64,000 bases of DNA from a phage (GCA_027468165.1 GCA_027468165.1_3951.1), one strand, 5' to 3'; numbered from the stretch's first letter, positions 16,542 to 64,000 are shown. Notes: a model not told the origin generated them from the sequence alone. A program made the numbers and translations.

Positions 16542-16550
16542 TTTCTTTAC

Positions 16551-16571
16551 AGGGGCTTTATAGCCCCTTTT
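16551..16571 (+). terminator. Hairpin/terminator between the two fiber genes
   Basis: AGGGGC-TTTATA-GCCCCT hairpin followed by TTTT. Confidence 0.4.
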
Positions 16572-16587
16572 AAGAGGAAAATTTATA

Positions 16588-20699: not shown

Positions 20700-20700
20700 A

Positions 20701-21246: not shown

Positions 21247-21503
21247 TTTGTAAATCCTTTCTTAATGAACCAGTTGATAACATTCTTCACAGCTTTATTA
21301 CTATGGTAGATTAAGTGTGGTGTAGGCTGGTATAAACCATAAGCCCAGAAAGCAATGATTTCATTACATCCTGTACACCTTGTACTCTCTTCGGCAATAT
21401 GACCGTGGACTATTTCACTTACCTCACCTTGTAAGTCTGTACACCCACAATGTGGGCATCGGATAGGTGTTCCATCAGACTCATAGCAGTGTTCAATTTT
21501 CAT
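21243..21503 (-). CDS. Zinc-ribbon protein (hypothetical)
   Basis: CPHCGC ... CTGCNE cysteine pairs. Confidence 0.4.
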   Translation of the reverse strand: MKIEHCYESDGTPIRCPHCGCTDLQGEVSEIVHGHIAEESTRCTGCNEIIAFWAYGLYQPTPHLIYHSNKAVKNVINWFIKKGFTK

Positions 21504-22019: not shown

Positions 22020-22032
22020 AGTTAATCACCTA

Positions 22033-22392
22033 TTATGGGAACAGACACTTAATGTCATCGTTTTTGAAAACGAAGCTTGTGTAATTGTGACCATCAACGT
22101 CCAGCCAAACAGCCTGAACATCTACACCATCAAGGTTGTGGTAAAGCTCTTTGATGAAGTGGTCTTTCACAATCTGACTGCTAGTTGTTTCCAGCTTAAT
22201 GTTTGAGATTGCTGAACCTACAGCCATATAACCCATGACACGTTTCTTCTCAGTATGATTAATCTTACCATCTTTGTAAGTCATAATGAGATTGGAAAGA
22301 ATCTTTGCACCGTAATGCTTCTCAAGGTGAGTAGGTACACCATAAAAACCTAGTGCGAAGTTTTCAGAGTGGATAATGTTTTCACGTTTCAT
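22033..22392 (-). CDS. Hypothetical protein
   Basis: 119 aa ORF in the minus-strand operon. Confidence 0.4.
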   Translation of the reverse strand: MKRENIIHSENFALGFYGVPTHLEKHYGAKILSNLIMTYKDGKINHTEKKRVMGYMAVGSAISNIKLETTSSQIVKDHFIKELYHNLDGVDVQAVWLDVDGHNYTSFVFKNDDIKCLFP

Positions 22393-22393
22393 A

Positions 22394-22723
22394 TTAATCT
22401 GCCAACCTTAAATTGAAGTTAACACCAAATTTTTCACATACTCCCAACATAAACTCAAGGGAGACATTGCCAGTGAGATTGATTATGTTGGATACACGAG
22501 CCTGAGAGATACCACAAATTTTAGCAACTTGCTCTTGAGAAAGACCTCTGGATTTAATCTCTCTCTTAAAACGATGTGCAACGAAATCTCTCATTTCGTC
22601 TACATCCATTGGACAAATATAACTCCCCATTTCAGCCTCTCTGTCAGCCTCCCAATCATCTTGTGGAGCATAAGGGTCAAAAACCTCATTCATCTTTCTT
22701 CTTCCGTTTGCGTGAAGTGTCAA
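22394..22723 (-). CDS. Helix-turn-helix (XRE-type) DNA-binding protein
   Basis: LSQEQVAKICGISQARVSNIINLTGNVSLEFMLGVCEKFGV matches the HTH_3 pattern. Confidence 0.6.
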   Translation of the reverse strand: MTLHANGRRKMNEVFDPYAPQDDWEADREAEMGSYICPMDVDEMRDFVAHRFKREIKSRGLSQEQVAKICGISQARVSNIINLTGNVSLEFMLGVCEKFGVNFNLRLAD

Positions 22724-22898
22724 TCAATGAATCTATGTTTGTAGCTCTAACCTTTTCACGTTCATCGTTAAGATAATCGTCAAGAGCCTTTTCAATCTGT
22801 GAATCATCTTGACAGATAACTGTAAAGACTGTAAAGCCGTCTGTATCATCAATTATCTTACCATAACCGCTTCTGGGATGTAACTTTTTAAGAGCCAT
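22686..22898 (-). CDS. Hypothetical protein
   Basis: 70 aa ORF with basic C-terminus; overlaps the start of the HTH gene. Confidence 0.3.
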   Translation of the reverse strand: MALKKLHPRSGYGKIIDDTDGFTVFTVICQDDSQIEKALDDYLNDEREKVRATNIDSLIDTSRKRKKKDE

Positions 22899-22899
22899 A

Positions 22900-23283
22900 T
22901 CAAATACCTGTGCAGCTTCTGTTTTCTAAGAAATACTCAACACCATACATAGCTTTTTGCATCAAATCTTCTTTAAACTGGATACGATGATTAAGCATAG
23001 CCTGTACATCAATATCATCATGGTGCTTCTCTTTAATATTTGCAGATTGCAGGAAATACTCTGCAAGAACACGATACTGATAGTCAGTTACCTTATCAGT
23101 CATCTCTGTTAAAGACTCTTCAGAGATTGGTTTAAGTAACTCACCATTAGCCAGAGCAACACCTTTAACAATCTGGCAAGTGTCTTCTGGAACACCTGAT
23201 AAGTCCACATTTGGGAGTTCTGTTGCATTGACTGGTAAATTCATTGCCATAACCATTGCAGCAGCTAATAAAATCTTTTTCAT
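22900..23283 (-). CDS. Secreted/periplasmic protein with signal peptide (hypothetical)
   Basis: N-terminal MKKILLAAAMVMAMNLPVNA signal-peptide-like sequence. Confidence 0.45.
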   Translation of the reverse strand: MKKILLAAAMVMAMNLPVNATELPNVDLSGVPEDTCQIVKGVALANGELLKPISEESLTEMTDKVTDYQYRVLAEYFLQSANIKEKHHDDIDVQAMLNHRIQFKEDLMQKAMYGVEYFLENRSCTGI

Positions 23284-23548
23284 AATGACCTCAAAGTTAT
23301 ATTAAATTTTGTATTACATCGAGTATAAAAATAAGCTATAACACCTGACTTGTCAACAGATTTTATAGCTTATTTGGCAGATTTTTATAAGGCTACTACC
23401 ATCCTTCCATACCAAACCCTACCTTACCAAACCATACAATACTGAACCTCACTTAAAACCCTCTTAGAAGACTCTTAAGTGATGCTGGTGAGTACCCGTT
23501 GGTTTATGCTGCTCAGTATACTCACCAAATTTTCTATGTCAACAACTT

Positions 23549-24652
23549 TTATTCATAATCTCGTATAACGAGACCAACAGGGAACTGTAAAGAACCCTTA
23601 CGAGTCATCTTCTGGAACTGAACCGTTAAAGGCTTCCCGATAAACTCTTCAGGATGTTCAGCAAGATACTGTTTTTTCTCATGAGTAGTCTTCCATGAGA
23701 CATCTACAAAGACGTTAGGGAGAGTCTCTACAACAAACTTGCCATGACCACGCTTATCAGTCTTTACACCAGTTACTTTAAACTCTTCAGTGTGCATCTT
23801 CTTGTGCTTAATCAAGAAGTATGAACGGTGACAACACTCATAGAAGGAGTATTCAGAAATTGAACGGTACATTGCACCTTCAAACTTAGCTTCAACCCAT
23901 TTATCATGAGCTTCATCAAACTCTTCCCAAGAATTTACACGACGAGATTTAACAGGAACAACTTTACAGCCATCTCTAAAGTCATTCAATGGTGAAGTCT
24001 CAATAATATCTCTACGCTCAGGCCACGTCTTAGTGCTGTCACAGATATCATACCAGTAAAACTTGAGCAGGTGTCTGTCAGGATTGTCTTCATTTTTAAT
24101 CATAGAGACAATATCTTCTAAGTCCCACCCATGAGCATAAATCTCTCCATCAAATTCATCAACATCTTTGTGGAGCCTTAGCATTGCCATAATGTCAGGT
24201 ATTAGTTCAGTAGGGATTTTGTAAACAGTATTCTCACGAGAGTATGCTGTAAATACACTGCCAATACTCAAGTGCCTTGAAATCCTACAACGTACACCAT
24301 CCAGTTTTGGTTGAGCATCAGCAGGGAATTTCAAATACTTTGCATGACTAACCTTTGCAGCATCATGAGCAAGCTGAACACCTACCTTTTCAGTATTCTG
24401 TGCAGACTCTTTTGTGTAAGCATAACCTTTGCGGTCAACTTGCTTTTTATACTTAGCAGAAACTTCAAAGAGAGCTTGCTGTTCAGCGTTACGCTCATTC
24501 TTTTTACCGATGTTTTTAGGTTCTGCTGTATACTCTTCAAACATCATCTTGCCATTTTCTTTACCGTAGGTTGTAATAACTTTGTCACCTACAGCAACGC
24601 ATGACCAGACATTGAAAGAGCCATCTTTATTTTGTTTGTACAGAATTGTCAT
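23549..24652 (-). CDS. ATP-dependent DNA ligase
   Basis: Adenylation motif I KLDG (PKLDGVRCR); size and context fit a T7-type ligase; start chosen at ATG after GAGG RBS. Confidence 0.8.
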   Translation of the reverse strand: MTILYKQNKDGSFNVWSCVAVGDKVITTYGKENGKMMFEEYTAEPKNIGKKNERNAEQQALFEVSAKYKKQVDRKGYAYTKESAQNTEKVGVQLAHDAAKVSHAKYLKFPADAQPKLDGVRCRISRHLSIGSVFTAYSRENTVYKIPTELIPDIMAMLRLHKDVDEFDGEIYAHGWDLEDIVSMIKNEDNPDRHLLKFYWYDICDSTKTWPERRDIIETSPLNDFRDGCKVVPVKSRRVNSWEEFDEAHDKWVEAKFEGAMYRSISEYSFYECCHRSYFLIKHKKMHTEEFKVTGVKTDKRGHGKFVVETLPNVFVDVSWKTTHEKKQYLAEHPEEFIGKPLTVQFQKMTRKGSLQFPVGLVIRDYE

Positions 24653-24845
24653 TTTTAACCTCTGAGTGATACCAAGTGTAACAAGCATTACATGCGTAAA
24701 GCTCTAAGTCATTTTTATCTGGTTTATGGAAACAGTTTGACCCACAACGACACCGGAATAGCTTACCATCAACACGAAGAATGAATGTTTCAAGCTCACC
24801 ATCTTCTGTAAGAACTGCGTTCTTAAATTTATCTTCTACAGTCAT
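24627..24845 (-). CDS. Zinc-ribbon protein (hypothetical)
   Basis: CRCGSNC ... CNAC cysteine pairs. Confidence 0.35.
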   Translation of the reverse strand: MTVEDKFKNAVLTEDGELETFILRVDGKLFRCRCGSNCFHKPDKNDLELYACNACYTWYHSEVKNDNSVQTK

Positions 24846-24896
24846 TTTCTCTTACCACCAATTTCTACGTCAATAACTTGAACATCACCAGCAACA

Positions 24897-25133
24897 TCAC
24901 TCAATAACCGTAGTATGTGATTGACCGTTTTTACCATAGCTGTAAGATGTTGTTGTTTGAGAGTTTGGACATCTGACAACAACAATGTCTCTGCTTATGG
25001 TATCACCATGTAACTTATAGACTTTGCAATCTTGCATCTCTGGTGGGAGGCTGTAAGAAGCATTTTTATCTTCATAAGAAGGGTTGCAGCCAGATAGAAA
25101 AATAACACCAAGTGCAATTACTGCTTTCCACAT
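24897..25133 (-). CDS. Putative lipoprotein
   Basis: ATG after GGGGAGG RBS; signal peptide ending in lipobox-like FLSGC. Confidence 0.45.
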   Translation of the reverse strand: MWKAVIALGVIFLSGCNPSYEDKNASYSLPPEMQDCKVYKLHGDTISRDIVVVRCPNSQTTTSYSYGKNGQSHTTVIE

Positions 25134-25319
25134 AATACCTCCCCTATTACTGTTCACGATGTTCTACTTCTCTGTACGTTCGTCGATAGATTATAATAAG
25201 CTGTGCTAACTCGTTGCTTTTCACATCTGAACGTAGCAGTTGCCAATCAAAACCTTTACCGACTCTTCCATACAAACTAAATAATTTTACTTTGTGTTTC
25301 ATTTTGGTGTCCCTAATAC

Positions 25320-25547
25320 TCAGAGGCCAATACTAATACGTTCACCCTTAAGGACTCCTGTACGGTCTCTTGCAATCTTACCGTCAACAATAAGAATGTG
25401 CGCAGACTTTAAAGATTCACTATTAAAACCTTTTACGAACTTACTAGGCATCACCACAATAAGCATCTCTTGAATCAACTCTGGAGTATAGCAGTTGTTG
25501 TGAAGTTGCTGAATAACGTCTGCAAGTGTCATTTTTGATGTCTCCAA
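25320..25547 (-). CDS. Hypothetical protein
   Basis: 75 aa ORF. Confidence 0.3.
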   Translation of the reverse strand: METSKMTLADVIQQLHNNCYTPELIQEMLIVVMPSKFVKGFNSESLKSAHILIVDGKIARDRTGVLKGERISIGL

Positions 25548-25738
25548 TACTCAATGTCAATAAGTTCTTGTGCAATGCTTTTCAGATTACCTTTCAAGAA
25601 AACCTTCTCAGAACCTGAAAGAGATGAATTATCAATTAGCCTGTTCATCCTCTCAAACAACTTCTGCTTACGATTCTTGATAGTCTCCTTTGAAGCACCT
25701 TTCATCATTGCTGCATGGGTTCTTCCACGGTGGCTCAT
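25529..25738 (-). CDS. Hypothetical basic protein
   Basis: 69 aa ORF. Confidence 0.3.
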   Translation of the reverse strand: MSHRGRTHAAMMKGASKETIKNRKQKLFERMNRLIDNSSLSGSEKVFLKGNLKSIAQELIDIEYWRHQK

Positions 25739-25799
25739 AAGCCCTCCTATATAAGATATTGTATAAGGTACTCTTCCATGAGCACCTTGTCAATACTAA

Positions 25800-26356
25800 T
25801 CAGTGTACTTCAAGCCAATTTTTACCAACTTTACCAGTACCAGTTACAAGCGTTTCCTCCTTAAGCCCTAAATTTCTTGACGCTTGACCATACATCCAGT
25901 CAATTACTGCTTTAACATCCTGCGTCATGTCTTCTGGGCACTCCCAACTATTCTCATCGTGATATGCTAAAAGCAATCTAGCGCCAATAGCTGGTTTTCG
26001 ACCATTCAACTTTGTAAGACCCTCTTCACAAGTTCTTCTACAAGCAAGGTTGATGGCTTCATTCTGAACCTGACTTTCAGAACCCATAAGCAAATAATTC
26101 AATAACTTATGTGGAGATTTACACCACAACCAAGCTCCAGCAACCTTTACAAACCCTCCTTTAGAGATTGCGGCAGTCTTACCAAATACCTCTTCAAGAG
26201 CCTTCTTAGTAGCTTTGAAGTCTGCTTCTAAATTATCCAGCAGCTTCTTAATTTTAGGGAGACGTACAAAGTATGTTTGCTTAGTTAAAGCACCCTCCTC
26301 AGTTGTAGATGCTTTAATCGTCTTAGCAAATTTCTCATCGCCAGCCCCGAACAATA
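25800..26356 (-). CDS. DNA polymerase (family A), exon 2 (C-terminal part)
   Basis: LFGAGDEK (end of motif B), AYHDEN (motif C) and C-terminal ...KNWLEVH match Pol I/T7-type polymerases; frame is open upstream of the reported start. Confidence 0.75.
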
Positions 26357-27157
26357 CATCTGGTCAATACACTCGCAAGGTGTACCAGTTCTCTTATGAA
26401 CTTCTCCGCATTTCTACGGAGTGTCGGACTATATCACGTAGCAGTGATGCTACCGTTGCACTTGGGAATGGTCATTAGCTTACCACCCTACTCTACTCAG
26501 TTCATACGTTAAGTATGCCTTTCGATAGTCTCTGAACGTTTCTCTGTTAGGAATCTCTATAGTTATGTTATTTACTTAGGTAGTCAATTGCTCTTTGCAT
26601 ATTATCAACGCTATCTGCAAGCAACCCCAAAGCTCTGTTGCAATTGTGGCATAACATACCTCTTACCTTTCCGGTTTTATGGTCATGGTCAACAACAAGT
26701 TTAGCCTTGTGTCGTGAACCATTCATGATAAAACCTTCACCGCCACAAATTTGACATTTGTAATCACAGTCACGGAGTAGAGCTTCAACCTCTTCTCTTT
26801 CCAATCCATATGTTCTTAGGTAGTAATTCTTAACTCTACCTTTCTCACCGCAATGTGACGAACAATAAACTTGCCTTGCTGTTCTCGGCATGAACACCTT
26901 CTCACAACTAGGACATTTCTTAGTAAGAACCCTGTGTTCTGCCCTTCTGTCAAACTTTAATACACAACTTCTGCACCGTTTCTGATTGTATTGGTATGGT
27001 TTAAACTCCGTACCACACTCAGTGCATAATCTCTCTTCGTAACCTGCCATTGTCTCTCTCCTTGTTTTAGGAGTCCTAACAGAGACTTCGCTGCTGATTA
27101 CCATATCTTTACAGACTTAGGCTTCCAGCAATTCACAACGTTTTACATGCGCCACTG
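26357..27157 (-). mobile_element. Group I intron (about 801 nt) interrupting the DNA polymerase gene and carrying an HNH endonuclease ORF
   Basis: 5' exon ends in U paired to intron GCGCAU (P1); intron ends in G; R-like GTTCAGAGACTA and S-like GATATAGTCC elements (minus strand); exon lengths sum to 2700 nt in frame. Confidence 0.65.
26568..27050 (-). CDS. HNH homing endonuclease (intron-encoded)
   Basis: Cys-rich zinc-binding region plus VVDHDHKTGKVRGMLCHNCNRALG HNH motif; start at ATG after AAGGAGA RBS. Confidence 0.8.
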   Translation of the reverse strand: MAGYEERLCTECGTEFKPYQYNQKRCRSCVLKFDRRAEHRVLTKKCPSCEKVFMPRTARQVYCSSHCGEKGRVKNYYLRTYGLEREEVEALLRDCDYKCQICGGEGFIMNGSRHKAKLVVDHDHKTGKVRGMLCHNCNRALGLLADSVDNMQRAIDYLSK

Positions 27158-29300
27158 ACGCATAAATGCCATTTTTGGCTTTCTTACGACCTTTACTAAT
27201 TTCTTGAAGAAGACTTGCATCCTGTGTAGCTCGACATGTCAAGATGTCTTCCTCTTTATTAAGACTGAAGTAGATACTATTTAAAGTATGTGCATCAGTT
27301 CCTGAGTACACCACGTACAAGTCATTTTCCGAATCATAATGCAAATACTTGTCAATCTCTGGGTTTAGATACTGGTCAAAATGTTTGCAATAATATCTAC
27401 CATCCTCTTGTTTGACAAACTCAACCTCTTCTTTACCCTCTGTCACTGCTTTGGTGAACTCTTTATCACCCATAAAGTTACACAGCAGTACAAGTTGCGC
27501 GCTATTCATATCTGCTGAAACAATATTAGTTCCTTCTTCACAAGTCCAAACTTCCCTCATAGGTGCTCCATAGACAGCAGCACCAGACGGTACGTTTACA
27601 ATACCATATTGTGTCATACGTCCAGTTGAAGTACCAAATACCATTGCACCAGCACTAAGGCGACCATCTGGACGAATCTGGTTCAACCAACCTTTTTCAT
27701 CATCCTTTGAGTTCTCAATAGTTCTGCGTCGGTGCATCAAAGTATAGTACTTAGCAATCTTCTGTCCAAGCTCACCTTCAATCGTATCATAAGATGATTC
27801 AGTAAGTTTTGGTGAAGTCCTAATCAGACAAGGTTCAAGCAAATCTGTGTACTTCTTCACAGACCAGTTATGCTCAATGTACTGGACACCTTCGTGTTCA
27901 ACATAGCTCAAACCACACCGTTCCACCATCTCATCCCACTTAGGATGCTTTGTAATCATCTTTTTGTTGTCTTTGAAGCGACAAACCTTAACAGGACGAC
28001 CATCAGAGTCTTTCTTATAGTTCCAGTCATCTGGAATCCAACCAACTGATTTCAAGTAGTCTTTAACAACTGCTACCTGAGTCATACGAGAAACTTCGAA
28101 CTCAATTGGTGTATATGGTGCATCAATCAAACCTGTGTAGCGACTTGACTCAAGTTCAAAGTGGTTAACAACATGGCTGTTATAGTACTTCACAGTTTTA
28201 ACTGTTTTTACTGGCTTCCAGTCTTTGCACTTCTTACCAATCTTTGCATTCAACTCATTGCAAATTGCACGAGCATCCTTCATTGCTACAAAACCTTCCT
28301 TGTACTCTTCACCAGTTACGGAGTTGGTTGGTGTATAGCAATTCCGCTTTTCAATGTTAAAAATCTTTGTAGTTGGCTTACCAAATGGCTTGATTTCATA
28401 TGTCTGCATCTCACCGTTACGTACCTGCTGACGATACTTTGTCTTAGGGTACTTGGTAATTCTCTTCAGTCCATCTGCATGGCCGAATGCTTCAACATAC
28501 TCATTCCAAGCTTTTGCAAACTCTTCTCCAGTGACTTTGCCTTTGGTCTTAATAGTTGGAGGAAGATGTGGTTCAACTTCTGAAGCAAGCTCATTAGTCA
28601 ACTTGTCAAGTTCCTTTACATGGAACTCCATAAGCTCTTTATCAGCTTTCCAACCATTGATAGCTTGTTGACTCATCCAGAAAGATGTTTCTTTAGCTCG
28701 CATGTAGGTTTCATAGGTGTCTACGCCACACTTCTTCAGCTTGAGATATTCATTATCCAGTGCACGTTTAGTTTTGGCGTTAATACGGATATCTTCTACA
28801 ACACGAGTGAAGATTTCTGCATTCCACACACCCCAATGTTCAATCTCTGGTTTACGTACACCAACACGAGCACCCCATGCTGCCAAGCCATGAGCACCTT
28901 TATAGCCCTTTGGAGTTGGTCTATCCATCCACTGAACACGAGACTGGATAAGAGAATCCTGAAAGAAATTACTCCACGGCTTACACTTTGGATTATCAAA
29001 GTTCCACAAATCAGGTGCAATGTGATTGAAAACCCACCAGTCATACCCTAAACCATTATGGATGCAAAGTCGTTTTGCCTTTAACGCAAACTCAATACCT
29101 TCACGCAAACCACCCTTAATGTACTTGGTATACTTGTGACCGAGGATAGGCTCATCTGTAAAGACCCATACAGGTGGCTCTTCATCGTCAGATTTATAGT
29201 CTGCGAAAGCCATTACGTGCACTTTAGTGAACTCAAGGAGTAAACCATCAGTTTCTGTATCACCAACTAAATGTAAGTTTTTAAAATCTACGTTTTCCAT
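27158..29300 (-). CDS. DNA polymerase (family A), exon 1 (3'-5' exonuclease and N-terminal polymerase part)
   Basis: N-terminal exo motif VGDTETDG; ends in RKKAKNGIYA (start of motif B) then reads into an intron stop; start at ATG after GAGGGAG RBS. Confidence 0.75.
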
Positions 29301-29557
29301 TTTTACTCCCTCTAAAATCATTAACCACATACATTACTGCAAAAAATTATAAAAAGCAAGTTGACAATGTACTTGACAAGGTGTTAATCTTTGCGAAGTG
29401 GGTTTTTACTTAAAAGGTTACTTAACAGTTTAACTATACAGATACTTTAAAACTCTTAAAAGATTATTTAATAGCTTTTAAAAAGCTTTAAAGTATAACG
29501 TATAGAATACGTTAAGATAAAAGATTAAAACTTAATAGTTACTTAAAAGAGGCTTAC

Positions 29558-29980
29558 ATGCAGAAAATGTTTGTTCACCCAGACATAGCTGACTTTGTTA
29601 GAGCTTTGCAGAAGTTGGAAGAACTTGACATTGCTGCTCAACGGGAATATGCTCACCATCACAGGAGAATGGTTGATATACAACATGAAATAGAGTTGTC
29701 TGAAAACTATGAAGATGACTTAAAATGCTCTGTATTTGAGCATATGAAAGATGTTGCTACAGCGAGACGTAAAGCTAAAGACACAGTTGCTTTACTAGAT
29801 TCTCTTAAAAAGAAGTTGCAAAGTGGTACAGACCTGTGTAATCTAGCGTCACTGATTAATGATGTTGAAACTTCTTGGGATAGGCATTACTATCCACGTT
29901 CTGAAAAGACACTTGACTTTTCTTCATCCGAAAACTTAAAATGCTCTAGAAAGAAACTTAACCAACTGAGAGAGAAATAA
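29558..29980 (+). CDS. Hypothetical protein (first gene of the plus-strand early block)
   Basis: 140 aa ORF after an AT-rich control region. Confidence 0.4.
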   Translation: MQKMFVHPDIADFVRALQKLEELDIAAQREYAHHHRRMVDIQHEIELSENYEDDLKCSVFEHMKDVATARRKAKDTVALLDSLKKKLQSGTDLCNLASLINDVETSWDRHYYPRSEKTLDFSSSENLKCSRKKLNQLREK

Positions 29981-29981
29981 T

Positions 29982-30794
29982 ATGAACACTACTGTAGACC
30001 AGATGCTTAAAGAAAAAGGTGTTGACGAAGCATTCTTAATCAATGCCGTAGAAAGCATGGCTATGATTCTTCGTGGAAACAACTACACAGAACAGTTTAT
30101 GCCTGCAAGCTATAACTTGCCTAAAGACAAGTCTGATAACGGTGCTTTTGCAGAACAGGTTAACATGATGCTGTGCGACAAGAAACTTGCTTTAGCATCC
30201 ATCGTTGTAGGTGTTGATGCTCTTGCAGAGTTCATCTTTTATGAGATGCAGAAAAATGACTATATTGCCATGACCTCTGAAGAAAAAGACTCGCTACTAC
30301 TCTTAGATAATAATGAGCTAGTTGACCTGTTAATTTCGTCAACGAGTGCTGTTATGGCTGCTCTTGAGAAGCGCATGGAAGAGAAGCTGTCACGATATGA
30401 AAAACTTGATTGGGGTGTAGAAGAGTTAAACCCACGAATCAAAGAGATTATCCAGCAAACCAAAGATTCTTTGGAAGAAGCTGTGAAAGATGATTCCGTA
30501 GCTGATGTAGAACCACTACAGGTGAAGGTCGCTCTGATGATTCCAGCTATTTCTACAATGATGAATATCGTTGCACTAATCCAACTTTCACAGATGTTGG
30601 GTGTAACCATTGAGTTCGTTGAGGAGATGACTGGTGGTGTCAGTATGCAAGCAATCAATGATGTTTTGGTAAACATTGGTGCTTCAATCATTGAAGAGAA
30701 GCTGCGTATTAACTTTGGTGATGATTTTGTGAAGCAAGTATCAGCTATGGCTGAAAAAGAGTATTCACAGATTAATACCGACCAACTGCACTAA
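29982..30794 (+). CDS. Hypothetical protein
   Basis: 270 aa ORF followed by a terminator. Confidence 0.4.
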   Translation: MNTTVDQMLKEKGVDEAFLINAVESMAMILRGNNYTEQFMPASYNLPKDKSDNGAFAEQVNMMLCDKKLALASIVVGVDALAEFIFYEMQKNDYIAMTSEEKDSLLLLDNNELVDLLISSTSAVMAALEKRMEEKLSRYEKLDWGVEELNPRIKEIIQQTKDSLEEAVKDDSVADVEPLQVKVALMIPAISTMMNIVALIQLSQMLGVTIEFVEEMTGGVSMQAINDVLVNIGASIIEEKLRINFGDDFVKQVSAMAEKEYSQINTDQLH

Positions 30795-42247: not shown

Positions 42248-42446
42248 ACGCCTTTGGGAAGGCTTGGTTATTGATGCACCAGCTATTGTGATTGGTATGC
42301 TTGTTGTTAACCTATTTACTGACTTTGAACAAGGTTCATTGTTTGGAGCCATGTTAATATGGGTTATCTTTGAAATCTTAGAGATACAGTTAGGCATCAC
42401 TGAAAAACTAAGAGAACTCTTTTCAAAGTTTTCTAAAAAGATTTAA
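42240..42446 (+). CDS. Small membrane protein (hypothetical)
   Basis: 68 aa, hydrophobic. Confidence 0.3.
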   Translation: MLKRLWEGLVIDAPAIVIGMLVVNLFTDFEQGSLFGAMLIWVIFEILEIQLGITEKLRELFSKFSKKI

Positions 42447-42453
42447 AATGAAA

Positions 42454-42475
42454 GGGTCTCTTCGGAGACCTTTTT
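42454..42475 (+). terminator. Rho-independent terminator
   Basis: GGGTCTC-TTCG-GAGACC hairpin followed by TTTTT. Confidence 0.6.
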
Positions 42476-46988: not shown

Positions 46989-47309
46989 ATGAGCAAAGTT
47001 TATAACACTCGTAAATTACAGATTTTCGTACTGTGCCAGTTTATGGCTAAAGAGTATAACTGCTACTATTGTGGTACAGGGTTCATTAGTGATAATGACG
47101 GCTCATATCTACCATTCAAAGAGGCTGTAAAACTCTTCAATGAAGAGAAAAGCTCTAAGAAAGATATTGAAAAGGTTAAGTTAACCTACAGCAAGAAAGA
47201 TAAGAAGATTATCTGCCTAGATAACTTTGTAAAAGTTACTGGAGAAGCAAAAGAGTTTATGGATGAGAGTGAAATCTCATTCACAAGCATCTTGAAAGTA
47301 GCTCAGTAA
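46989..47309 (+). CDS. Hypothetical protein
   Basis: 106 aa ORF followed by a terminator. Confidence 0.35.
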   Translation: MSKVYNTRKLQIFVLCQFMAKEYNCYYCGTGFISDNDGSYLPFKEAVKLFNEEKSSKKDIEKVKLTYSKKDKKIICLDNFVKVTGEAKEFMDESEISFTSILKVAQ

Positions 47310-47320
47310 ACAGATACTAT

Positions 47321-47347
47321 AAGGGGACTGTAAAGGTTCCCTTTTTA
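47321..47347 (+). terminator. Rho-independent terminator
   Basis: AAGGGGA/TTCCCTT hairpin followed by a T-run. Confidence 0.4.
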
Positions 47348-47360
47348 TTTTGGAGATAAT

Positions 47361-47894
47361 ATGTATCTGTCAAATCTGAAACGTTCGGTTGCAATGTCAG
47401 TTCTAAGACTCAGCTTTGAGGAACGTCAAGAGTTCATTGACACCCACCAATATGACCCTTCTAACTCTAATCACATGATTCTCTGGAATCGTGAGAGTAC
47501 TCGTGAAAGAGCACTATTCCGCTATTACCCACACTACACTATAGATAACCTGTATGAATGTTTTGTTGTGAAGAACACCATTACAGTTCTCAATAAGCTT
47601 TGTAGATACACAGGTAACCAGTCCTTCACATTAGGTCACCACAAGCCTGTTACAAAAGGTGGTGAGCATCACTGTACAAACTGGTTTATCCAAACTAAAG
47701 CTGATAATCAGAAGCAAGGAGATAACCTCCTAAGTACTCCTAAGATGACCTATGAAGAGCAAGAGAAATATATCAAAAATAATATGCCAGATGTGCTTGA
47801 CAACAACTATACAGATTTGGCAATATCTCTCCTGTTGAAGTTCGAGACAGTTTATAGGGCAACTTACAATGGCAGTAACAAACGTAACTTTTGA
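47361..47894 (+). CDS. HNH endonuclease-like protein (putative free-standing homing endonuclease)
   Basis: LGHHKPVTKGGEHHCTNWFIQTKADNQKQGD resembles an HNH core (His pair, Asn, conserved Gly). Confidence 0.45.
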   Translation: MYLSNLKRSVAMSVLRLSFEERQEFIDTHQYDPSNSNHMILWNRESTRERALFRYYPHYTIDNLYECFVVKNTITVLNKLCRYTGNQSFTLGHHKPVTKGGEHHCTNWFIQTKADNQKQGDNLLSTPKMTYEEQEKYIKNNMPDVLDNNYTDLAISLLLKFETVYRATYNGSNKRNF

Positions 47895-47909
47895 TTGAGA
47901 GAGAAAACT

Positions 47910-48365
47910 ATGATTTTTTGCAGCTTCCAAAAAAGAATTATTGAGATTCTATACAATAAGTTTGGGACAGATAACACATTTGACTCAAATGAAGCTATTG
48001 AAGCCCTACAAGAAGGAAGTGATTATATCAAAAAACAGCCAATAGCAAACATCAGGTACTACTTGACTCAGATGAGAAAGTGGGGTGTGCTCATCGTGGT
48101 AGGACAGATTAAGCAACAAGGGAGGATGCTCATCAACCAATTAAATAGGGGTTTTATTGAGAAGCACATTCAGCTAGAATATTTACTTAAAGAGCCACGA
48201 AAACAACGTGAAGAGCAGCAAAAAGACTTAAGTGGTGGTGTAGATGTGTCTCCAGACATAAAATTCTTTATTGGTGAGTTGATGTTTGATACACTCCAAG
48301 ATGCTGTTGAACACTGCAAAAAGTATATTATCAAAGTAAAACGTGCAAAAATTATTTGGGAGTAA
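47910..48365 (+). CDS. Tandem paralog family member A1 (unknown function)
   Basis: About 60% identical to A2 at 48787; shares N-terminal ILY.KFG.DNTF and C-terminal EA.EHCKK..I.VK.AK.IWE with all four members. Confidence 0.5.
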   Translation: MIFCSFQKRIIEILYNKFGTDNTFDSNEAIEALQEGSDYIKKQPIANIRYYLTQMRKWGVLIVVGQIKQQGRMLINQLNRGFIEKHIQLEYLLKEPRKQREEQQKDLSGGVDVSPDIKFFIGELMFDTLQDAVEHCKKYIIKVKRAKIIWE

Positions 48366-48369
48366 TAAC

Positions 48370-48765
48370 ATGTTTGAGCTTCTGAAGGTTCTGTATATAA
48401 ATTTTGGCTATGACAAAACATTTTCTGGCTCACAACTAACTAAGGTTTTTAATAAATATCTACCACATGCTTCAATCAGGGATAAAGCTAATTGGTCTCA
48501 CAGATTACGTAAAAGTGGATATCTTAGTGTTGTTGGAGCGACAGGCTTTAATAATGAGTATCTTATGAGAATCAATGAAAGCAAAGCTAAAAATGTGCTT
48601 TTAAGTTGTAATGACCATCAACAAAAGGATGAAGAGGTTAGTGTAGGTGAAGTAGGGTACTTCATAGGTGATATACACTTTACCAGTATGGAGGCAGCAG
48701 TTGAGCATTGTAAGAGAACGGTTATCCAAACAAAAAGAAAGCGTATTGTTTGGGAAGAAGTTTAA
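48370..48765 (+). CDS. Tandem paralog family member B1 (unknown function)
   Basis: Starts MFELLKVLYINFGYDKTF; pairs with B2 at 49256; shares the C-terminal motif. Confidence 0.5.
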   Translation: MFELLKVLYINFGYDKTFSGSQLTKVFNKYLPHASIRDKANWSHRLRKSGYLSVVGATGFNNEYLMRINESKAKNVLLSCNDHQQKDEEVSVGEVGYFIGDIHFTSMEAAVEHCKRTVIQTKRKRIVWEEV

Positions 48766-48786
48766 ACATTTGATTAGGAATACACT

Positions 48787-49251
48787 ATGATTTTTTGCAA
48801 TTTACAGAAGCACGTAATAGAGATTTTATACAAAACCTTCGGGACAGAAAACACTTTTGACTCTAACGAAGCAATTGACGCATTAAGAGAGAATAGCCTT
48901 TTTATACGAGGCCAGTCAATCAGCAATACCCGTGGGTATCTAACAATGTTAAGACAGTCTGGTGTACTGCTGACTGTAGGGCAGGTAAAAAGCAAAGGTA
49001 GACTAAGTATTAATCAATTAAATCGAGCCTTTATGGAGAAGCACATACAACTGTCAAGGATGCTAGACAATACGCGTGAAGAGTTGGGGAGTTCACAAAA
49101 AGCAAGTTCACCTGATGTTAAAGATGTGGATGTACAACCTGACGTAAGATACTTTATTGCTGATGTTATGTTTAAAACACTCGATGAAGCTATTGAGCAC
49201 TGCAAAAAGCATCTTATTAAAGTTAAACATGCAAAAGTTATTTGGGAGTGA
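48787..49251 (+). CDS. Tandem paralog family member A2 (unknown function)
   Basis: MIFCNLQKHVIEILYKTFGTENTFDSNEAI... paralog of A1. Confidence 0.5.
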   Translation: MIFCNLQKHVIEILYKTFGTENTFDSNEAIDALRENSLFIRGQSISNTRGYLTMLRQSGVLLTVGQVKSKGRLSINQLNRAFMEKHIQLSRMLDNTREELGSSQKASSPDVKDVDVQPDVRYFIADVMFKTLDEAIEHCKKHLIKVKHAKVIWE

Positions 49252-49255
49252 TGCT

Positions 49256-49636
49256 ATGATTGAACTGTTAAAAGTCCTATATAAAAAGTTTGGTTATGAT
49301 AAAACTTTTACTTGTTCACAGATACGTAGTATCCATGACAAGGAATTTCCAAATGTATCCAAGACAAACAAGTCAACTCGGTTCAATCGTCTTCGCCAGA
49401 GGGGTTACATTAAAATAGTTGGATACAAGAATAACTCTTTCGAGTATGTAATGCAGATTAACAGAGAAGTATCAAGTAAAATACTTGAAGAGCCAACAGC
49501 CGAAGAACAAAAGATACAAGATGGTGAAGTTCGCTTCTTTGTGGAGAAGGAAAGTTTTGGGTCAATAGATGAAGCTATCGAGTATTGTAAAAAGAACATT
49601 ATCCAGATAAAGCGTAGAAAGGTTATTTGGGAATAA
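49256..49636 (+). CDS. Tandem paralog family member B2 (unknown function)
   Basis: MIELLKVLYKKFGYDKTF... paralog of B1; ATG after GGGAG RBS. Confidence 0.5.
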   Translation: MIELLKVLYKKFGYDKTFTCSQIRSIHDKEFPNVSKTNKSTRFNRLRQRGYIKIVGYKNNSFEYVMQINREVSSKILEEPTAEEQKIQDGEVRFFVEKESFGSIDEAIEYCKKNIIQIKRRKVIWE

Positions 49637-49651: not shown

Positions 49652-50533
49652 ATGAAAACATCTATCCGTGTTACAGTTCATTCACCAACTAAAGGGACTC
49701 ATGAAGAAGAATTTAACATCATCCAATTCCCTTCTGGTGAGATTGGTGGACACTTTTCACCAGAGTTTGTTGATTTTACTGCATATGCAGCATCATCTAT
49801 CAACAATGTGATTATGATTGTAAAAGGTTATGATAAAGATACATTGTTTGCTGTGGCACTTGCTAAAGAGGCTGTGGACAACTTAGTACCTCATAAGTTT
49901 GCTATGAAGACTGTTATCTTTTACTATTTACCAAATGCACGTTATGACCGTCACATGTTTAAAGGTGATGCAGCAGCTTTGAAAGTGTTTGCACAACAGG
50001 TTAATGCAATGGGTTTTGATGCAGTCTGTGCAGTTGACCCTCACAGCTATGTGCCAGATAACCTGTTTAACTGCTTCCAGAGCATTCCTCAAAAGGAAAT
50101 TGCAGTCCACTATGCAAATGACCCACTGGTTGATTACTTAGTAGCCCCAGATGCAGGTGCTTCTAAGAAGATTGCAGAAACTGCTAAAGAAGTGGATAAA
50201 CCATACATCACAATGTCTAAAGTACGTAACCTTAAGACTGGTGAAATTACTGGTATGCGAATCCTTGATGATGTTGATTTGACAGATAAAACCGTCATGA
50301 TTCTGGATGATATCTGTGATGGAGGTCGTACCTTTATAGAAGCAGCTAAACATCTTCGCGAAGCAGGTGCAAAACGTGTGGAACTCTATGTAACACATGG
50401 TATCTTCTCTAAAGGTGTTGAAAACCTTCTTGACAATGGTATTGACCATATCTACACTACAAACTCTTTAGGGGAAGCTAAAGACCGTGGTTTAGCACAT
50501 TATAGCCAAGTTACTGTAGCAAACCTTGATTGA
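49652..50533 (+). CDS. prs: Ribose-phosphate pyrophosphokinase family protein (Prs-like; possibly NARP1 ADP-ribose pyrophosphokinase)
   Basis: PRPP-binding-type motif VMILDDICDGGRT; directly upstream of a NadV-like gene. Confidence 0.65.
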   Translation: MKTSIRVTVHSPTKGTHEEEFNIIQFPSGEIGGHFSPEFVDFTAYAASSINNVIMIVKGYDKDTLFAVALAKEAVDNLVPHKFAMKTVIFYYLPNARYDRHMFKGDAAALKVFAQQVNAMGFDAVCAVDPHSYVPDNLFNCFQSIPQKEIAVHYANDPLVDYLVAPDAGASKKIAETAKEVDKPYITMSKVRNLKTGEITGMRILDDVDLTDKTVMILDDICDGGRTFIEAAKHLREAGAKRVELYVTHGIFSKGVENLLDNGIDHIYTTNSLGEAKDRGLAHYSQVTVANLD

Positions 50534-50544
50534 AACTTTATAGG

Positions 50545-50565
50545 GGGGCTTCAAAGCCCCATTTT
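50545..50565 (+). terminator. Hairpin/weak terminator
   Basis: GGGGCTT-CAA-AGCCCC hairpin followed by ATTTTG. Confidence 0.35.
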
Positions 50566-50581
50566 GAGAGAGATTAAAAAG

Positions 50582-52363
50582 ATGACTAAATCACTTTATG
50601 CAGTACCAGCAGGTTTAAACGCGGACGCTTACAAATCTGGCCATGTTTACCAATACCCTAGTGCAACAGATTACTTGATGTTCAACCTGACACCACGTAG
50701 TGATAAATGGTTTAATAGTCCTTTAGCAATTGATGGTGTAGTGGCTTTTGGTATTCAACGTTTTGTTAAAGATTACTTGATAGACCACTGGAACGCCACT
50801 TTCTTTGAACGTGATAAAAAAGAAGCAATTGACGAAATCTTAGAAGTCATGAATGGTGTTCTGGGTAAAGATGCTATCGGTCGAGAGCATTGGGAAGCAC
50901 TTCACGACTTAGGTTATCTACCAGTTGAAGTATACGCTGTAGAAGAAGGTACAGTTGTACCTATGCGTGTTCCAATGATTGTATTCCAGAACACTGTTTC
51001 AGGTTTCCATTGGGTAGCGGGATATCTGGAAGATGCTTTCTCTGCTGAGATTTGGAAGGCTTGTACCATTGCAACTATTGCATTGCACTACAAACGTATC
51101 TGTAAGAAGTGGGCTGACCTCACTTGCAACAATGACTCACATTTGCCTTATCAGTGCCATGACTTTGCTATGCGTGGTATGTCTGGCTTTACTGATGACG
51201 CATTTAACGCTGTAGGTCACTTAACAAGCTTTAAAGGGACTGATAGCTTCCCTGCGGTATATACAGCTAAACGCATTTATGGACAGTCATACCCAATCTC
51301 TGATATTGGTAGCTCTGTACCAGCCACTGAACACTCTGTCATGTGTGCAAACATTGCTTGGGAAGGTGGTAATGAGTTGATTGAAGAAGAAAGACGCTTT
51401 AAAGGTGAGTTGCAAACCTTCCGTCGTTTCTTAACAGAAACTTACCCAACTGGTATTGCAAGTGTTGTTTCAGACACTTATAATTTCTGGAGAACTGTAT
51501 CAGAAATCTTACCAGCACTTCGTAAAGAGATTATGGAACGTGACGGAAAACTGGTAATTCGTCCTGACTCTGGCGACCCTGTACATATTGTCACAGGTTA
51601 TAAAGCAATCCACTTAGAGTGCGCTAAAAAAGCTTATTACGAACACCTAAGCAAGCTGGAAGCCAGCGACACAAAGTTGAATGCTGTTCTGAACATGAAT
51701 CTTGAAGACATTCACTATATTATGGCTGGGTGGTTACGTACAGAAGGCTATGAAATGGTGGTTGACAGAGAAGACTTTGAAGTAGCTGATACAGTGCTTC
51801 TGAAAGATGCCTACATCAACGGCTCTGCAAACGTTGTAACACGTCCTGTAGCAGAGATTGATGGAGCTATTAAGACCCTGTATAACATCTTTGGGGGGAC
51901 TATCAACTCTAAAGGCTTTAAGGTACTGGATGAGCACATTGGCCTTATCTATGGTGACTCTATCACGTTGGAACGTGCAAACGAAATCCTGAAGCGTTTG
52001 TATGAAATGGGTTTTGCAAGCTCTAACGTAGTGTTTGGTGTAGGTTCTTACACTTACCAGTACATGACTCGTGACACCTTTGCATTTGCTGTCAAAGCAA
52101 CTCTTGCAAGCATTGGTGGTAAAGAGATTATGCTTGCAAAAGACCCTAAAACAGATAGCGGTGTTAAGAAGTCTGCTTTTGGTGGTGTAGCACCTATGTG
52201 GGATGGTGATAAGCTGAAAGCTGTAGATGGCTATGGATTCCAGAGCTTTGCAGATGTGCTTGAACATCCAGCTTGTGCTTTACGTTTAGTCTTTAGTGAC
52301 TCTGAGCAGTTCGGTTACACAACTCTTGGTGATATTCGAAATAATATTGACAAGCAGCTTTAA
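50582..52363 (+). CDS. nadV: Nicotinamide phosphoribosyltransferase family protein (NadV/NAMPT-like; possibly NARP1 Namat)
   Basis: About 594 aa ORF paired with the Prs-like gene; assignment rests on size, pairing and general NAMPT-like character, not a verified alignment. Confidence 0.55.
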   Translation: MTKSLYAVPAGLNADAYKSGHVYQYPSATDYLMFNLTPRSDKWFNSPLAIDGVVAFGIQRFVKDYLIDHWNATFFERDKKEAIDEILEVMNGVLGKDAIGREHWEALHDLGYLPVEVYAVEEGTVVPMRVPMIVFQNTVSGFHWVAGYLEDAFSAEIWKACTIATIALHYKRICKKWADLTCNNDSHLPYQCHDFAMRGMSGFTDDAFNAVGHLTSFKGTDSFPAVYTAKRIYGQSYPISDIGSSVPATEHSVMCANIAWEGGNELIEEERRFKGELQTFRRFLTETYPTGIASVVSDTYNFWRTVSEILPALRKEIMERDGKLVIRPDSGDPVHIVTGYKAIHLECAKKAYYEHLSKLEASDTKLNAVLNMNLEDIHYIMAGWLRTEGYEMVVDREDFEVADTVLLKDAYINGSANVVTRPVAEIDGAIKTLYNIFGGTINSKGFKVLDEHIGLIYGDSITLERANEILKRLYEMGFASSNVVFGVGSYTYQYMTRDTFAFAVKATLASIGGKEIMLAKDPKTDSGVKKSAFGGVAPMWDGDKLKAVDGYGFQSFADVLEHPACALRLVFSDSEQFGYTTLGDIRNNIDKQL

Positions 52364-52377
52364 AAGTATATGATAAG

Positions 52378-52400
52378 AGGCTCCTACGGGAGCCTTTTTA
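52378..52400 (+). terminator. Rho-independent terminator
   Basis: AGGCTCC-TAC-GGGAGCCT hairpin followed by TTTTT. Confidence 0.6.
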
Positions 52401-60947: not shown

Positions 60948-61017
60948 GAAACTCTGTAGAATATTCACAATAGACTAAGCCTTTCTTATCTGGTAAATTT
61001 TTCAGGTAAGGAGGGCT

Positions 61018-61200
61018 TTTTCATTTCAGGATTGTGCAGGTAGATTTCTGGACAGAAATCTGTAGAGAGAATTTTGAACTCCAAAGAGAAAATTCATTTT
61101 CAAACTGTGCAGGTAATCTCCAAAGAGCTTTTTCATTTTCAAAACGTGCAGATAAAAATCAGGTCGGGCAAGAAAAATCATTTTAGAATTGTGCAGGTAG
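61018..61200 (+). repeat. Four imperfect direct repeats, core TTCATTTTCAAA-N-TGTGCAGGTA, in a noncoding region
   Basis: Copies near 61018, 61092, 61130 and 61177; also CTCCAAAGAG twice; the 70 aa track ORF here translates the repeats. Confidence 0.6.
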
Positions 61201-61375
61201 GTGAGTGTAGGTGGGAATGTCGCCATTTCTCACAAGGCTACCACATCCGAAAAGAAAAGTCAACAGAAAAATTTGTAGCGGATTGAAAAATAATTCTTGA
61301 TTTGTGTTCTGTTTTGTGGTAGTCGCGTGCGCCCGTTTCATTACATTTTTGCCAAAAATATTTTTAAAATTTTTA

Positions 61376-61850: not shown

Positions 61851-61853
61851 TAA

Positions 61854-61938
61854 AGTACTTTACAAGGGGTTTATAGTTCGATAAAGTAAGCCCCAGATAA
61901 AGAGCTTTACCACTCAATCCTAAATTGGAGATTCTAAA
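61854..61938 (+). repeat. Cassette element Y1: GTACTTTACA + hairpin GGGGTTTA..TAAGCCCC + AGATAAAGAGCTTTACC + leader
   Basis: Related copies at 62200-62286 and 63511-63597; leader variant CTAAATTGGAGATTCTAAAATG. Confidence 0.6.
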
Positions 61939-62196
61939 ATGGCTATTATCAAAAACGTTGTAATTACTGCAAAAACTCGCGATGACGCTCGCATCATGGC
62001 GAAAAAGTTAGGCGGGAAAGTTGTTGACAACGGAAAACAATCTGCTGTAAGGTGGGGCGTGAAGGCTGATAAACAACTAACCTTAAAACGCAGTTCAAAC
62101 AATCTTTTTAAAGGTGTAAAATCACTCGGTAAAGTGAACGTGTTTACCAAAAAAGGCTATAAAATGCGCTTGTCATTAACTGGCAATTTAATCTGA
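61939..62196 (+). CDS. Cassette small protein B (hypothetical, Lys-rich)
   Basis: 85 aa ORF after element Y1. Confidence 0.4.
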   Translation: MAIIKNVVITAKTRDDARIMAKKLGGKVVDNGKQSAVRWGVKADKQLTLKRSSNNLFKGVKSLGKVNVFTKKGYKMRLSLTGNLI

Positions 62197-62199
62197 TAA

Positions 62200-62286
62200 A
62201 GTACTTTACAGGGGGCTTAAAAGCTGATATCTTAAGCCCCAGATAAAGAGCTTTACTATATTAACCTTAAACTAGGAGATTCAAAA
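62200..62286 (+). repeat. Cassette element Y2 (stem variant GGGGCTTAA..TTAAGCCCC)
   Basis: Same flanks as Y1/Y3 with paired changes in the stem that keep base pairing. Confidence 0.6.
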
Positions 62287-62799
62287 ATGAAAACTGTAGA
62301 CGCTACCTTTGAAGTTGTAAAAGAAAAATTTTCCATCATTTACGAAGCTGTTAACTGCTACGAAGCAAGCCATAGCCTTGATAATTGGGAATTTACAGAT
62401 AATCACCAAGGTGGTGTGACTATTAAAAACCCCAACTATCGTTATAATGCTTTTAAATATGCAATCCCTTTACATTACAGCCTTAAACAGCTTTCAAGCG
62501 ACTATGCAAAACAAGGCCGGGAAAATCCATCAAAAGCGGCCTATATCAGCTTGCAGAGAGAACTAGAAAGGGATTTAGAAGCTTCAGCATATAATATTGC
62601 CGCAAAAGTTGTCGATGCAAACGGGAAAACGGTTTTAGATAGTTTTTCTATTGGTTACGCTTTCGATTGGTGCTATAGCGACGGCGTCGATTTAGCGGAT
62701 AGACTAAAAGAGGAGGTGAGCAGTTCAGGCGCAGAATCTGAAGTTATGGAACAATTAGAAGCCTTAAAAGATTCAGTGATGAATATCTTTAAAAATTAA
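62287..62799 (+). CDS. Cassette protein C (hypothetical)
   Basis: 170 aa ORF after element Y2. Confidence 0.45.
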   Translation: MKTVDATFEVVKEKFSIIYEAVNCYEASHSLDNWEFTDNHQGGVTIKNPNYRYNAFKYAIPLHYSLKQLSSDYAKQGRENPSKAAYISLQRELERDLEASAYNIAAKVVDANGKTVLDSFSIGYAFDWCYSDGVDLADRLKEEVSSSGAESEVMEQLEALKDSVMNIFKN

Positions 62800-63237: not shown

Positions 63238-63510
63238 ATGTATACTACTAACAACGGTCGCACCTTAAACGTAACCCTGCGCCACTATGTAAACGGCGTG
63301 ATGAACTTTGAAGATTTACAAGCGGAGCAACACATTCTGGATTGGCAACTTGCAGGATTCCAAAAAACTGCTACCGGATACGGGAAAAAGATTCCAACTA
63401 GTTGGAAAGTATACTACGAAGGGCGTTTGCGCAGAATTTATCAGGATGTATACAGCAATAGCGCATCAACTTACATCATGGTAAAAGGTAAAAAATTGCA
63501 TTTAGTGTAA
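63238..63510 (+). CDS. Cassette small protein E (hypothetical)
   Basis: 90 aa ORF after element X2. Confidence 0.4.
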   Translation: MYTTNNGRTLNVTLRHYVNGVMNFEDLQAEQHILDWQLAGFQKTATGYGKKIPTSWKVYYEGRLRRIYQDVYSNSASTYIMVKGKKLHLV

Positions 63511-63597
63511 AGTACTTTACAAGGGGCTTATAGTTCGATAAAGTAAGCCCCAGATAAAGAGCTTTACCGCATTAACCTTAAACTAGGAGATTCAAAA
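63511..63597 (+). repeat. Cassette element Y3
   Basis: AGTACTTTACAAGGGGCTTATAGTTCGATAAAGTAAGCCCCAGATAAAGAGCTTTACC...AACCTTAAACTAGGAGATTCAAAAATG. Confidence 0.6.
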
Positions 63598-64000
63598 ATG
63601 GCTATCAATAAACGCGAATTATCAATTTTAAAAGCACGTTTGACCGTTAACCGGATTAATGTTATTACGTCATCAGCACCAGACGAGACACTGCAAAACA
63701 TTATTGGGAAGATTCAAAGTGTTATCTTAGACGTTGAAAGCGTAAAAAACTCACTGACTGACGTTGCAGCAGGTATCACCTTAAACGGTGCACAATATGA
63801 AATGGCTGACATGTTAGGCAAATCTAAGGTAATGAATAAAGAGCTTGATTTGAAAATGTTCAGATTCGCCGTAAAAGTATGGTTATCCGTCGATTATGAC
63901 GCAAATTTTGCAATCGCTGACTTTTTTGCAACATGGTTACAACGTAATTTGACAAATCACGATTTTCGTGATATCTGCGATGCAATTTATGCAGAACTTT
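63598..64000 (+). CDS. Cassette protein F (hypothetical; 3' end beyond the window)
   Basis: ATG at the conserved leader; frame open to the window end (MAINKRELSILKARL...). Confidence 0.4.
   Translation, partial: MAINKRELSILKARLTVNRINVITSSAPDETLQNIIGKIQSVILDVESVKNSLTDVAAGITLNGAQYEMADMLGKSKVMNKELDLKMFRFAVKVWLSVDYDANFAIADFFATWLQRNLTNHDFRDICDAIYAEL

Follow-up and report, generated by a model that had tools for sequence, protein, structure and literature searches.

The locus examined here raises the question of what four small consecutive genes, arranged as two alternating pairs, do immediately upstream of a gene pair that probably serves the reconstitution of nicotinamide adenine dinucleotide (NAD+). 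These genes, named A1, B1, A2 and B2, occupy positions 47910-49636 of a 64,000-nucleotide (nt) stretch of phage DNA, which is called the window throughout. The reading favoured here, at a probability of roughly 0.4, is that their products would be accessory nucleic-acid-binding winged-helix factors, most likely binding double-stranded DNA, which act in pairs and form one unit with NARP1, the NAD+-reconstitution system. On sequence grounds the source of the window is a Felixounavirus phage; the 3.3 kilobases (kb) around the array have 95-97.5% nucleotide identity to Salmonella phage SP3_SHan-2021, Escherichia phage JN01 and other Felix O1-like phages.

The four open reading frames (ORFs) were found on the plus strand at exactly the positions given by a first-pass annotation of the window. 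The position-1 members are A1 (47910-48365, 151 residues) and A2 (48787-49251, 154 residues), and the position-2 members are B1 (48370-48765, 131 residues), which starts 4 nt past the A1 stop codon, and B2 (49256-49636, 126 residues). Homology puts the start of B2 at the ATG at 49256, as does a gene call made independently in a metagenome contig; the alternative starts, a longer TTG start and the longer start of some GenBank records, run into A2. Every gene of the array stretch lies on the plus strand, while the minus-strand ORFs there are short and unsupported, and scanning of the window from 46 to 53 kb with Rfam gave no family match.

Comparison of the four proteins revealed similarity far above chance, and they are true paralogs. 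The identity between A1 and A2 is 59%, that between B1 and B2 is 40% (BLASTP E = 2e-36) and that between A1 and B1 is 29% (E = 1e-17). All of them are matched over the full length by phrog_29478, a group of unknown function (E = 1.4e-63 for A1, 3.1e-15 for B1, 5.7e-68 for A2 and 1.5e-15 for B2). The N-terminal, middle (LR+xGxxxxVG) and C-terminal motifs by which the genes had been grouped initially are all present in the sequences, and a family hidden Markov model (HMM) run against all six-frame ORFs of the window found no members besides these four. Together with the homologs from other genomes five subfamilies were distinguished; A1 and A2 are sisters, a third A-type gene, A3, stands next to both, and B1 groups with B2 in a clade apart. 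Synonymous sites between the paralog pairs are saturated (proportion of synonymous differences, pS, 0.70-0.83), which indicates an old split.

The ratio of nonsynonymous to synonymous divergence (dN/dS) was calculated between orthologs by the Nei-Gojobori method. The values were 0.05-0.09 for A1 and A2 (0.05-0.08 for A2 alone), 0.14-0.25 for B1 and A3 (0.14-0.22 for B1 alone) and 0.09-0.12 for B2, in which case the orthologs were close ones. The genes are under purifying selection, with an overall range of 0.05-0.25, and the ORFs are therefore taken to be translated and functional. A Shine-Dalgarno-like sequence before each of the four genes is in accordance with this. The first-pass annotation had also connected the duplication with host-interaction pressure; this received no gene-wide support, as purifying selection was found in every ortholog comparison and the search for gene-wide diversifying selection in these comparisons gave no sign of it.

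A winged-helix fold, which had been offered only as a guess, was supported by structure prediction. The AlphaFold2 model of A1, built on a 17-sequence alignment, has a mean predicted local distance difference test (pLDDT) score of 75.5, rising to 90-94 over residues 11-60. The predicted winged helix (residues 1-79) is composed of helices at 5-18, 26-36 and 45-58, a strand at 23-25, and a wing of strands 61-67 and 73-78. It is followed by short helices, a disordered acidic linker (99-115), a beta-hairpin (119-126) with a helix (129-144) at pLDDT 50-71, and a low-confidence tail ending in IIWE. The model of B2 has the same layout with a shorter linker. In both models the topology is alpha1-beta1-alpha2-alpha3-beta2-beta3 in which the recognition helix is followed by a beta-hairpin wing, at pLDDT 80-94. 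Foldseek with the B2 model retrieved SarX, HxlR, MarR, PadR, Fur and forkhead structures, several of them DNA-bound, and the probability was 1.0 for SarX, HxlR, forkhead and Fur. A structure search of BFVD returned only the family itself and anonymous generic winged-helix phage proteins.

The composition of the proteins is of the kind expected for nucleic-acid binding. The proteins are basic (isoelectric point 8.4-9.4), and the N-terminal domains of the four window proteins carry a charge of +3 to +9 (+7 in B1 and +9 in B2), that of A3 being neutral. The linker is acidic in five of the six proteins examined, and Arg, Lys, Asn, Ser and Thr are frequent in the recognition helices. This composition suggests that the winged helices may bind nucleic acid in a sequence-specific manner. 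Conservation is distributed unevenly along the chain; the mean identity between subfamilies is 51% in the C-terminal 35 residues, 30% in the winged helix and 19% in the linker. The residues invariant in the whole family include Cys136, Lys144, Trp150 and the terminal Glu151 (A1 numbering), and the C-terminal helix, as read from its sequence, has a 3-4 hydrophobic repeat.

Database searches agreed with the initial statement that the family is not a recognised one. The four proteins had no significant match in Pfam, NCBIfam, PADLOC or PDB sequence profiles, and the 19 family members collected gave against Pfam only a sub-threshold and inconsistent scatter (XopL_C, RBFA, DapB_N, Tap-RNA_bind). 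None of the 19 matched the MarR, PadR and SarA family HMMs of Pfam and NCBIfam at E <= 1. No catalytic nuclease domain of the HNH, GIY-YIG or LAGLIDADG type was matched in A1, B1, A2 or B2 with Pfam or PHROG. The PHROG 29478 entry gives neither a function nor a structure and says nothing of the A/B split, the pair rule or the link to NARP1, and literature searches found no mention of the family.

Three faint resemblances were followed and rejected as evidence of membership. The C-terminal module aligns to the SH2 domains of NCK and GRB2 over 22-36 residues only, that is the hairpin and the alphaB helix, at E = 0.02-0.3, while the full domain has about 100 residues. The DEP domain, a variant winged helix, appeared as a match of the N-terminal domain at E = 0.04 (DEPTOR) and in one of the 19 members with Pfam (E = 0.1), both sub-threshold. 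The best PDB match of the N-terminal domain to a MarR protein had E = 0.41. These echoes are treated as shared local motifs or fold class.

The family is small and narrowly distributed. A word-index search of 5.8 billion proteins gave 14 clusters, and 16 after the distant member P0015 had been added to the profile; the clusters that could be traced all lie in Ounavirinae-type contexts. An exhaustive HMM search of 1.84 billion representatives returned five proteins, of which three stand for subfamilies and the others are P0015 and P0016. P0015 is a distant homolog of 125 residues with the same architecture and almost no linker, whereas P0016 has 1424 residues with repeated winged-helix units, matches the N-terminal domain of the family only, and has winged helix-turn-helix Pfam hits of its own that are sub-threshold. 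A scan of IMG/VR found zero members. With tblastn against 50,697 phage records, family genes were found in 16 records representing 14 distinct genomes, and the carriers are Felixounavirus or Mooglevirus wherever taxonomy lines or names tell. The single P0015 gene (8001-8378 of L006, a more distant Ounavirinae-like contig) lies downstream of rIIB in the early region, where SLT-domain, PNKP-like (faint), WYL_2-like (weak) and Macro-domain genes are among the genes around it.

The arrangement of the genes in other genomes revealed a simple rule of pairing. At least seven metagenome or NCBI contigs have [A1 B1] as their only cassette; [A2 A3] was found in Mordin, BSwM KMM2, Henu11, Pr103Blw and L009, and [A1 B1 A2 B2] in the window, 10 distinct GenBank phages and L016. 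Complete cassettes have two or four genes in every case with a gene of the A1/A2 clade leading, and every cassette sits immediately 5' of the Prs-like gene. A gap of 4 nt separates the A gene from the B gene, and the Shine-Dalgarno sequence of the B gene, GGGAG, lies within the Trp-Glu codons TGGGAG that end the A gene (window, L007 and L008).

The cassettes are flanked by direct repeats of the ribosome-binding-site region of the empty site, with a length of 36 nt in Mordin and of about 15 nt in both the window and L007. In Mordin (L004) the repeat around [A2 A3], TAACATTTGTAACTTTTGACTGAGAGAAATATTATG, of about 36 nt at 3455-3500 and 4430-4465, is identical to the sequence that array-less phages have once at the empty site, so that recombination could remove or insert the cassette precisely. 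The cassette was present in 16 of about 250 related records that have the flanking genes (about 6%). Among the closest relatives of the window by the tail region, carriers (SP3, fBSPA4) are mixed with non-carriers (DE7, SP116, JH2). This interleaving, together with the small number of carriers, indicates that the cassette is an optional insert which is gained and lost. It is present in finno, which grows on E. coli K-12, and absent from Bas63.

The history of the array itself was found to be less simple than the duplication of a two-gene module followed by divergence, as first proposed. The largest direct repeat of the 64-kb window lies within the array (196 nt, 77% identity, 886 nt spacing) and runs from the end of A across the junction into the start of B. 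Both A-to-B junctions of the window have the same 4-nt spacer and the TGGGAG Shine-Dalgarno sequence, which supports the descent of both A-B modules from one module. The module is therefore real, as is also seen from its occurrence alone elsewhere, but a single clean event does not account for the array, as A2 pairs with A3 in Mordin, Pr103Blw and L009 and the 3' segment of the A genes has probably recombined. Over the last 36 codons of A1 and A2 (48258-48365 and 49144-49251) pS is 0.18 against 0.70-0.87 elsewhere in the gene, a comparison that is small with about 25 synonymous sites; over the same codons the A2 orthologs of the window and Pr103Blw have a pS of 0.67. Because of this drop the conserved 3' segment points to recombination or patchy gene conversion inside the array, and it keeps A2-specific amino acids despite its low synonymous divergence.

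The genes downstream probably connect the array with a known anti-defence system. The stop codon of B2 is separated by 15 nt only from the start codon of the Prs-like gene (49652-50533, plus strand, 293 residues; PF00156/PF14572 on orthologs), which is followed by the Nampt-like gene (50582-52363, plus strand, PF04095/PF18127) of 593 residues from the ATG at 50582, the length also of its orthologs. Genes 79-80 of the Felixounavirus Bas63, with PF14572 and then PF18127/PF04095, have been shown to be NARP1, in which Adps and Namat rebuild NAD+ from ADP-ribose (ADPR) and nicotinamide and thereby counter SIR2-HerA and other NAD+-depleting defences (10.1101/2024.02.11.579819). The Prs-like gene has about 94% nucleotide identity across the genus. 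Owing to this genus-level identity and the Pfam annotations matching Bas63 79-80, the Prs-like gene would be Adps, the first enzyme of NARP1, and the Nampt-like gene Namat, the second. Records annotate the genes at 49652-52363 as ribose-phosphate pyrophosphokinase and nicotinamide phosphoribosyltransferase; these would be NARP1 enzymes and not ordinary Prs and Nampt.

The layout suggests that the array is transcribed together with NARP1. A consensus scan gave a sigma-70-like promoter match on the plus strand at 47292-47320 (TTGAAA, 17 nt spacer, TACTAT), which is the probable start of the unit holding the array. Its -10 hexamer abuts a terminator-like hairpin with a T-run (47321-47343, plus strand), which closes the upstream unit after a DUF7390 ORF. 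At the end of the unit a second promoter match is followed by a terminator hairpin (52347-52398, plus strand; TTGACA, 16 nt spacer, TATGAT; 11/12). The -35, the -10 and the hairpin at 47292-47343 are kept in 11 divergent Ounavirinae loci with the array present or absent, the element at 52347-52398 is likewise retained in divergent relatives, and Mordin annotates terminators at equivalent places, including after nadV. One unit would thus comprise an HNH-like ORF, A1, B1, A2, B2, the Prs-like gene and the Nampt-like gene.

In the favoured reading, these small, basic, two-domain proteins would act early in infection as pairs of one position-1 and one position-2 member. The variable N-terminal winged helix would supply the target specificity and a flexible acidic linker would join it to the C-terminal module. 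This constant module of 35 residues, a hairpin plus an amphipathic helix ending in Trp-Glu, may pair A1 or A2 with B1, B2 or A3, or may dock on a shared partner. Translational coupling would allow the pair to be made in stoichiometric amounts, and the pair would be transcribed in one unit with the NAD+-reconstitution genes of NARP1, as an optional cassette that genomes acquire or lose when short repeats in the ribosome-binding-site region recombine.

Several results weigh against this proposal. About 94% of the relatives are without the cassette, and pairing is not obligatory for the family, P0015 being the sole exception both to pairing and to the insertion site. The A2-to-A3 junction measures 28-33 nt with A2 ending in TGGGAA, so that tight coupling is missing in that cassette. 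No array-specific operator was found at the promoter of the unit, where the region is identical in the array-less SP116, and the only iteron-like repeats of the window are genus-wide and hence not array-linked. The C-terminal module is predicted with a pLDDT of only 50-79, and its final 9-10 residues fall below 50 in the models of A1 and B2.

The main rival explanation, though on the unlikely side, is that the proteins are anti-defence effectors, the pairs neutralising a host immune protein or sequestering a nucleic-acid or nucleotide signal while the variable winged helix tracks target variants. The position of the cassette favours it, directly upstream of NARP1 and apparently in the same unit, given that NARP1 is a proven anti-defence system in a Felixounavirus. 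The optional and sporadic presence (about 6% of relatives, interleaved with non-carriers), the five diverged subfamilies, the confinement of the family to one phage subfamily and the existence of protein-binding winged-helix domains are also consistent with such a role. It is nevertheless a case of guilt by association; PADLOC gave no hit and no similarity to known anti-defence proteins was found, strong purifying selection leaves no gene-wide arms-race signal, and the basic surface composition of DNA-binding type suits nucleic-acid binding better. Rather doubtful is the bolder idea that the A/B pairs are a new two-protein winged-helix module for anti-defence or defence sensing travelling with NARP1. 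The heterodimer would then block DNA-sensing or NAD+-depleting immunity or gate the NAD+ genes, with the Trp-Glu module docking on one conserved partner and the winged helices setting the specificity.

Local regulation of NARP1 by the proteins, in the manner of NrtR or of Aca repressors and with the operon kept quiet until it is needed, is improbable. The array has the position that nrtR occupies in the nrtR-prs-nadV operons of gamma-proteobacteria, where the NrtR repressor is released by ADPR (PMC2330246), and the winged-helix fold and the transcription unit apparently shared with NARP1 would fit such a role. Nevertheless, no Nudix or other ligand-binding domain was found in the proteins, the unit has a single promoter, whose sequence is the same in the cassette-less SP116, and no operator co-varies with the array. 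The 15-nt gap between B2 and the Prs-like gene has no room for an internal promoter, and NARP1 runs without the array genes in most Felixounaviruses. Finally, selfish or neutral cargo, in which the proteins would serve a mobile element linked to the HNH-like gene as its accessory DNA-binding subunits, with no benefit to the phage, is very improbable in spite of the 15-36 nt direct repeats of empty-site sequence around the cassette, the adjoining HNH-like ORF and the sporadic presence, since all four proteins lack a nuclease motif, the HNH-like ORF is there with or without the cassette, and purifying selection that has stayed strong while synonymous sites became saturated speaks for a function that is being maintained.

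The upstream flank had been described as two candidate homing endonucleases, and this was an overstatement. The first gene of the unit, an ORF of 177 residues (47361-47894, plus strand; phrog_3500), has a weak HNH-like signature (phrog_2214, E = 5e-5). The ORF of 106 residues at 46989-47309 belongs to DUF7390 (E = 1.3e-16), and Pfam and PHROG scans gave no nuclease signature for it, though one GenBank record calls it an HNH endonuclease. Both ORFs are found at this position in nearly all Felix O1-like phages; given this near-universal presence at a fixed position, neither behaves like a mobile homing-endonuclease gene. SP3, SP116, Mordin and L007 have a further ORF of 92 residues after the HNH-like ORF and ahead of the array (or of the Prs-like gene), which is missing in the window and fBSPA4. 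The deletion junction of this ORF in the window (47860-47909) shows a CAATGGC microhomology, and the HNH-like ORF ends on the last codons of the lost gene.

Other features of the window were also recorded. A -10 hexamer directly before a terminator hairpin was seen at three sites (47292-47343, 52347-52398 and 42420-42470); with this overlap, incoming upstream transcripts would terminate and transcripts that begin at the promoter would not contain the whole hairpin. The layout resembles the promoter-stem-loop cassettes of T4-type phages. The iteron-like repeats lie at 61012-61208, where a motif of about 38 nt (TTTTTCATTTTCAAAACGTGCAGGTAA-like) recurs four to five times at 39-45 and 112 nt spacing; the region is kept in 222 Felix O1-like records and may be an origin or regulatory region. 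An intergenic cassette of 93 nt, with a stem-loop and a TAAACTAGGAGATTCAAAAATG ribosome-binding site, precedes small early genes three times (61851-61943, 62197-62289 and 63508-63600), and a 61-nt relative of it occurs twice at 95% identity (61409 and 63178). Two neighbouring genes at 16143-19053 contain His-rich coding repeats of the GAHTHS type, in the region adjoining the tail and baseplate genes (5-13 kb), which suggests tail-fibre-like proteins. The GC skew is negative over about 20-30 kb (20000-30000), indicating a block of minus-strand genes in an otherwise plus-strand window.

The family is uncharacterised and narrow, and as an optional cassette that sits in a known anti-defence operon and is easy to manipulate it offers a lead. 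Should the pairs bind DNA, they would represent heteromeric phage regulators of a compact kind, in which the specificity domains can be swapped. If a role in defence evasion is true, they would add a component to the anti-defence repertoire of Felix O1-like phages, which is only partly mapped, and the NARP1 locus would be an insertion hotspot for such genes. Felix O1-like phages are in use for the biocontrol of Salmonella and E. coli. As the cassette is small and optional, and is carried by finno on E. coli K-12 but not by Bas63, gain- and loss-of-function experiments would be straightforward.

Comparison with known systems showed both likenesses and differences. NrtR offers the same gene order, a winged-helix gene immediately upstream of a prs-like/nadV-like pair. 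The array proteins (126-154 residues) differ in having no Nudix effector domain, for which no hit was obtained, and in carrying the winged helix at the N-terminus, whereas that of NrtR is C-terminal; the array has two to four genes against one, and no operator was identified for it. Aca and AcrIIA1-type proteins are small helix-turn-helix-class proteins encoded inside anti-CRISPR operons, and AcrIIA1 consists of a DNA-binding domain and a second effector domain. The likeness lies in small proteins of this class within an anti-defence operon; no sequence or structural match to them was retrieved, the array proteins have a winged helix in place of the classical helix-turn-helix, and the array lies upstream of the effector genes, Aca downstream. 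The MarR, SarA, PadR, HxlR and Fur factors are matched by fold and not by sequence family. The array models are without the flanking dimerisation helices or the ligand pocket of such factors; the array proteins have instead a disordered acidic linker and a unique hairpin-helix module of 35 residues ending in WE, and they are encoded as heterologous pairs.

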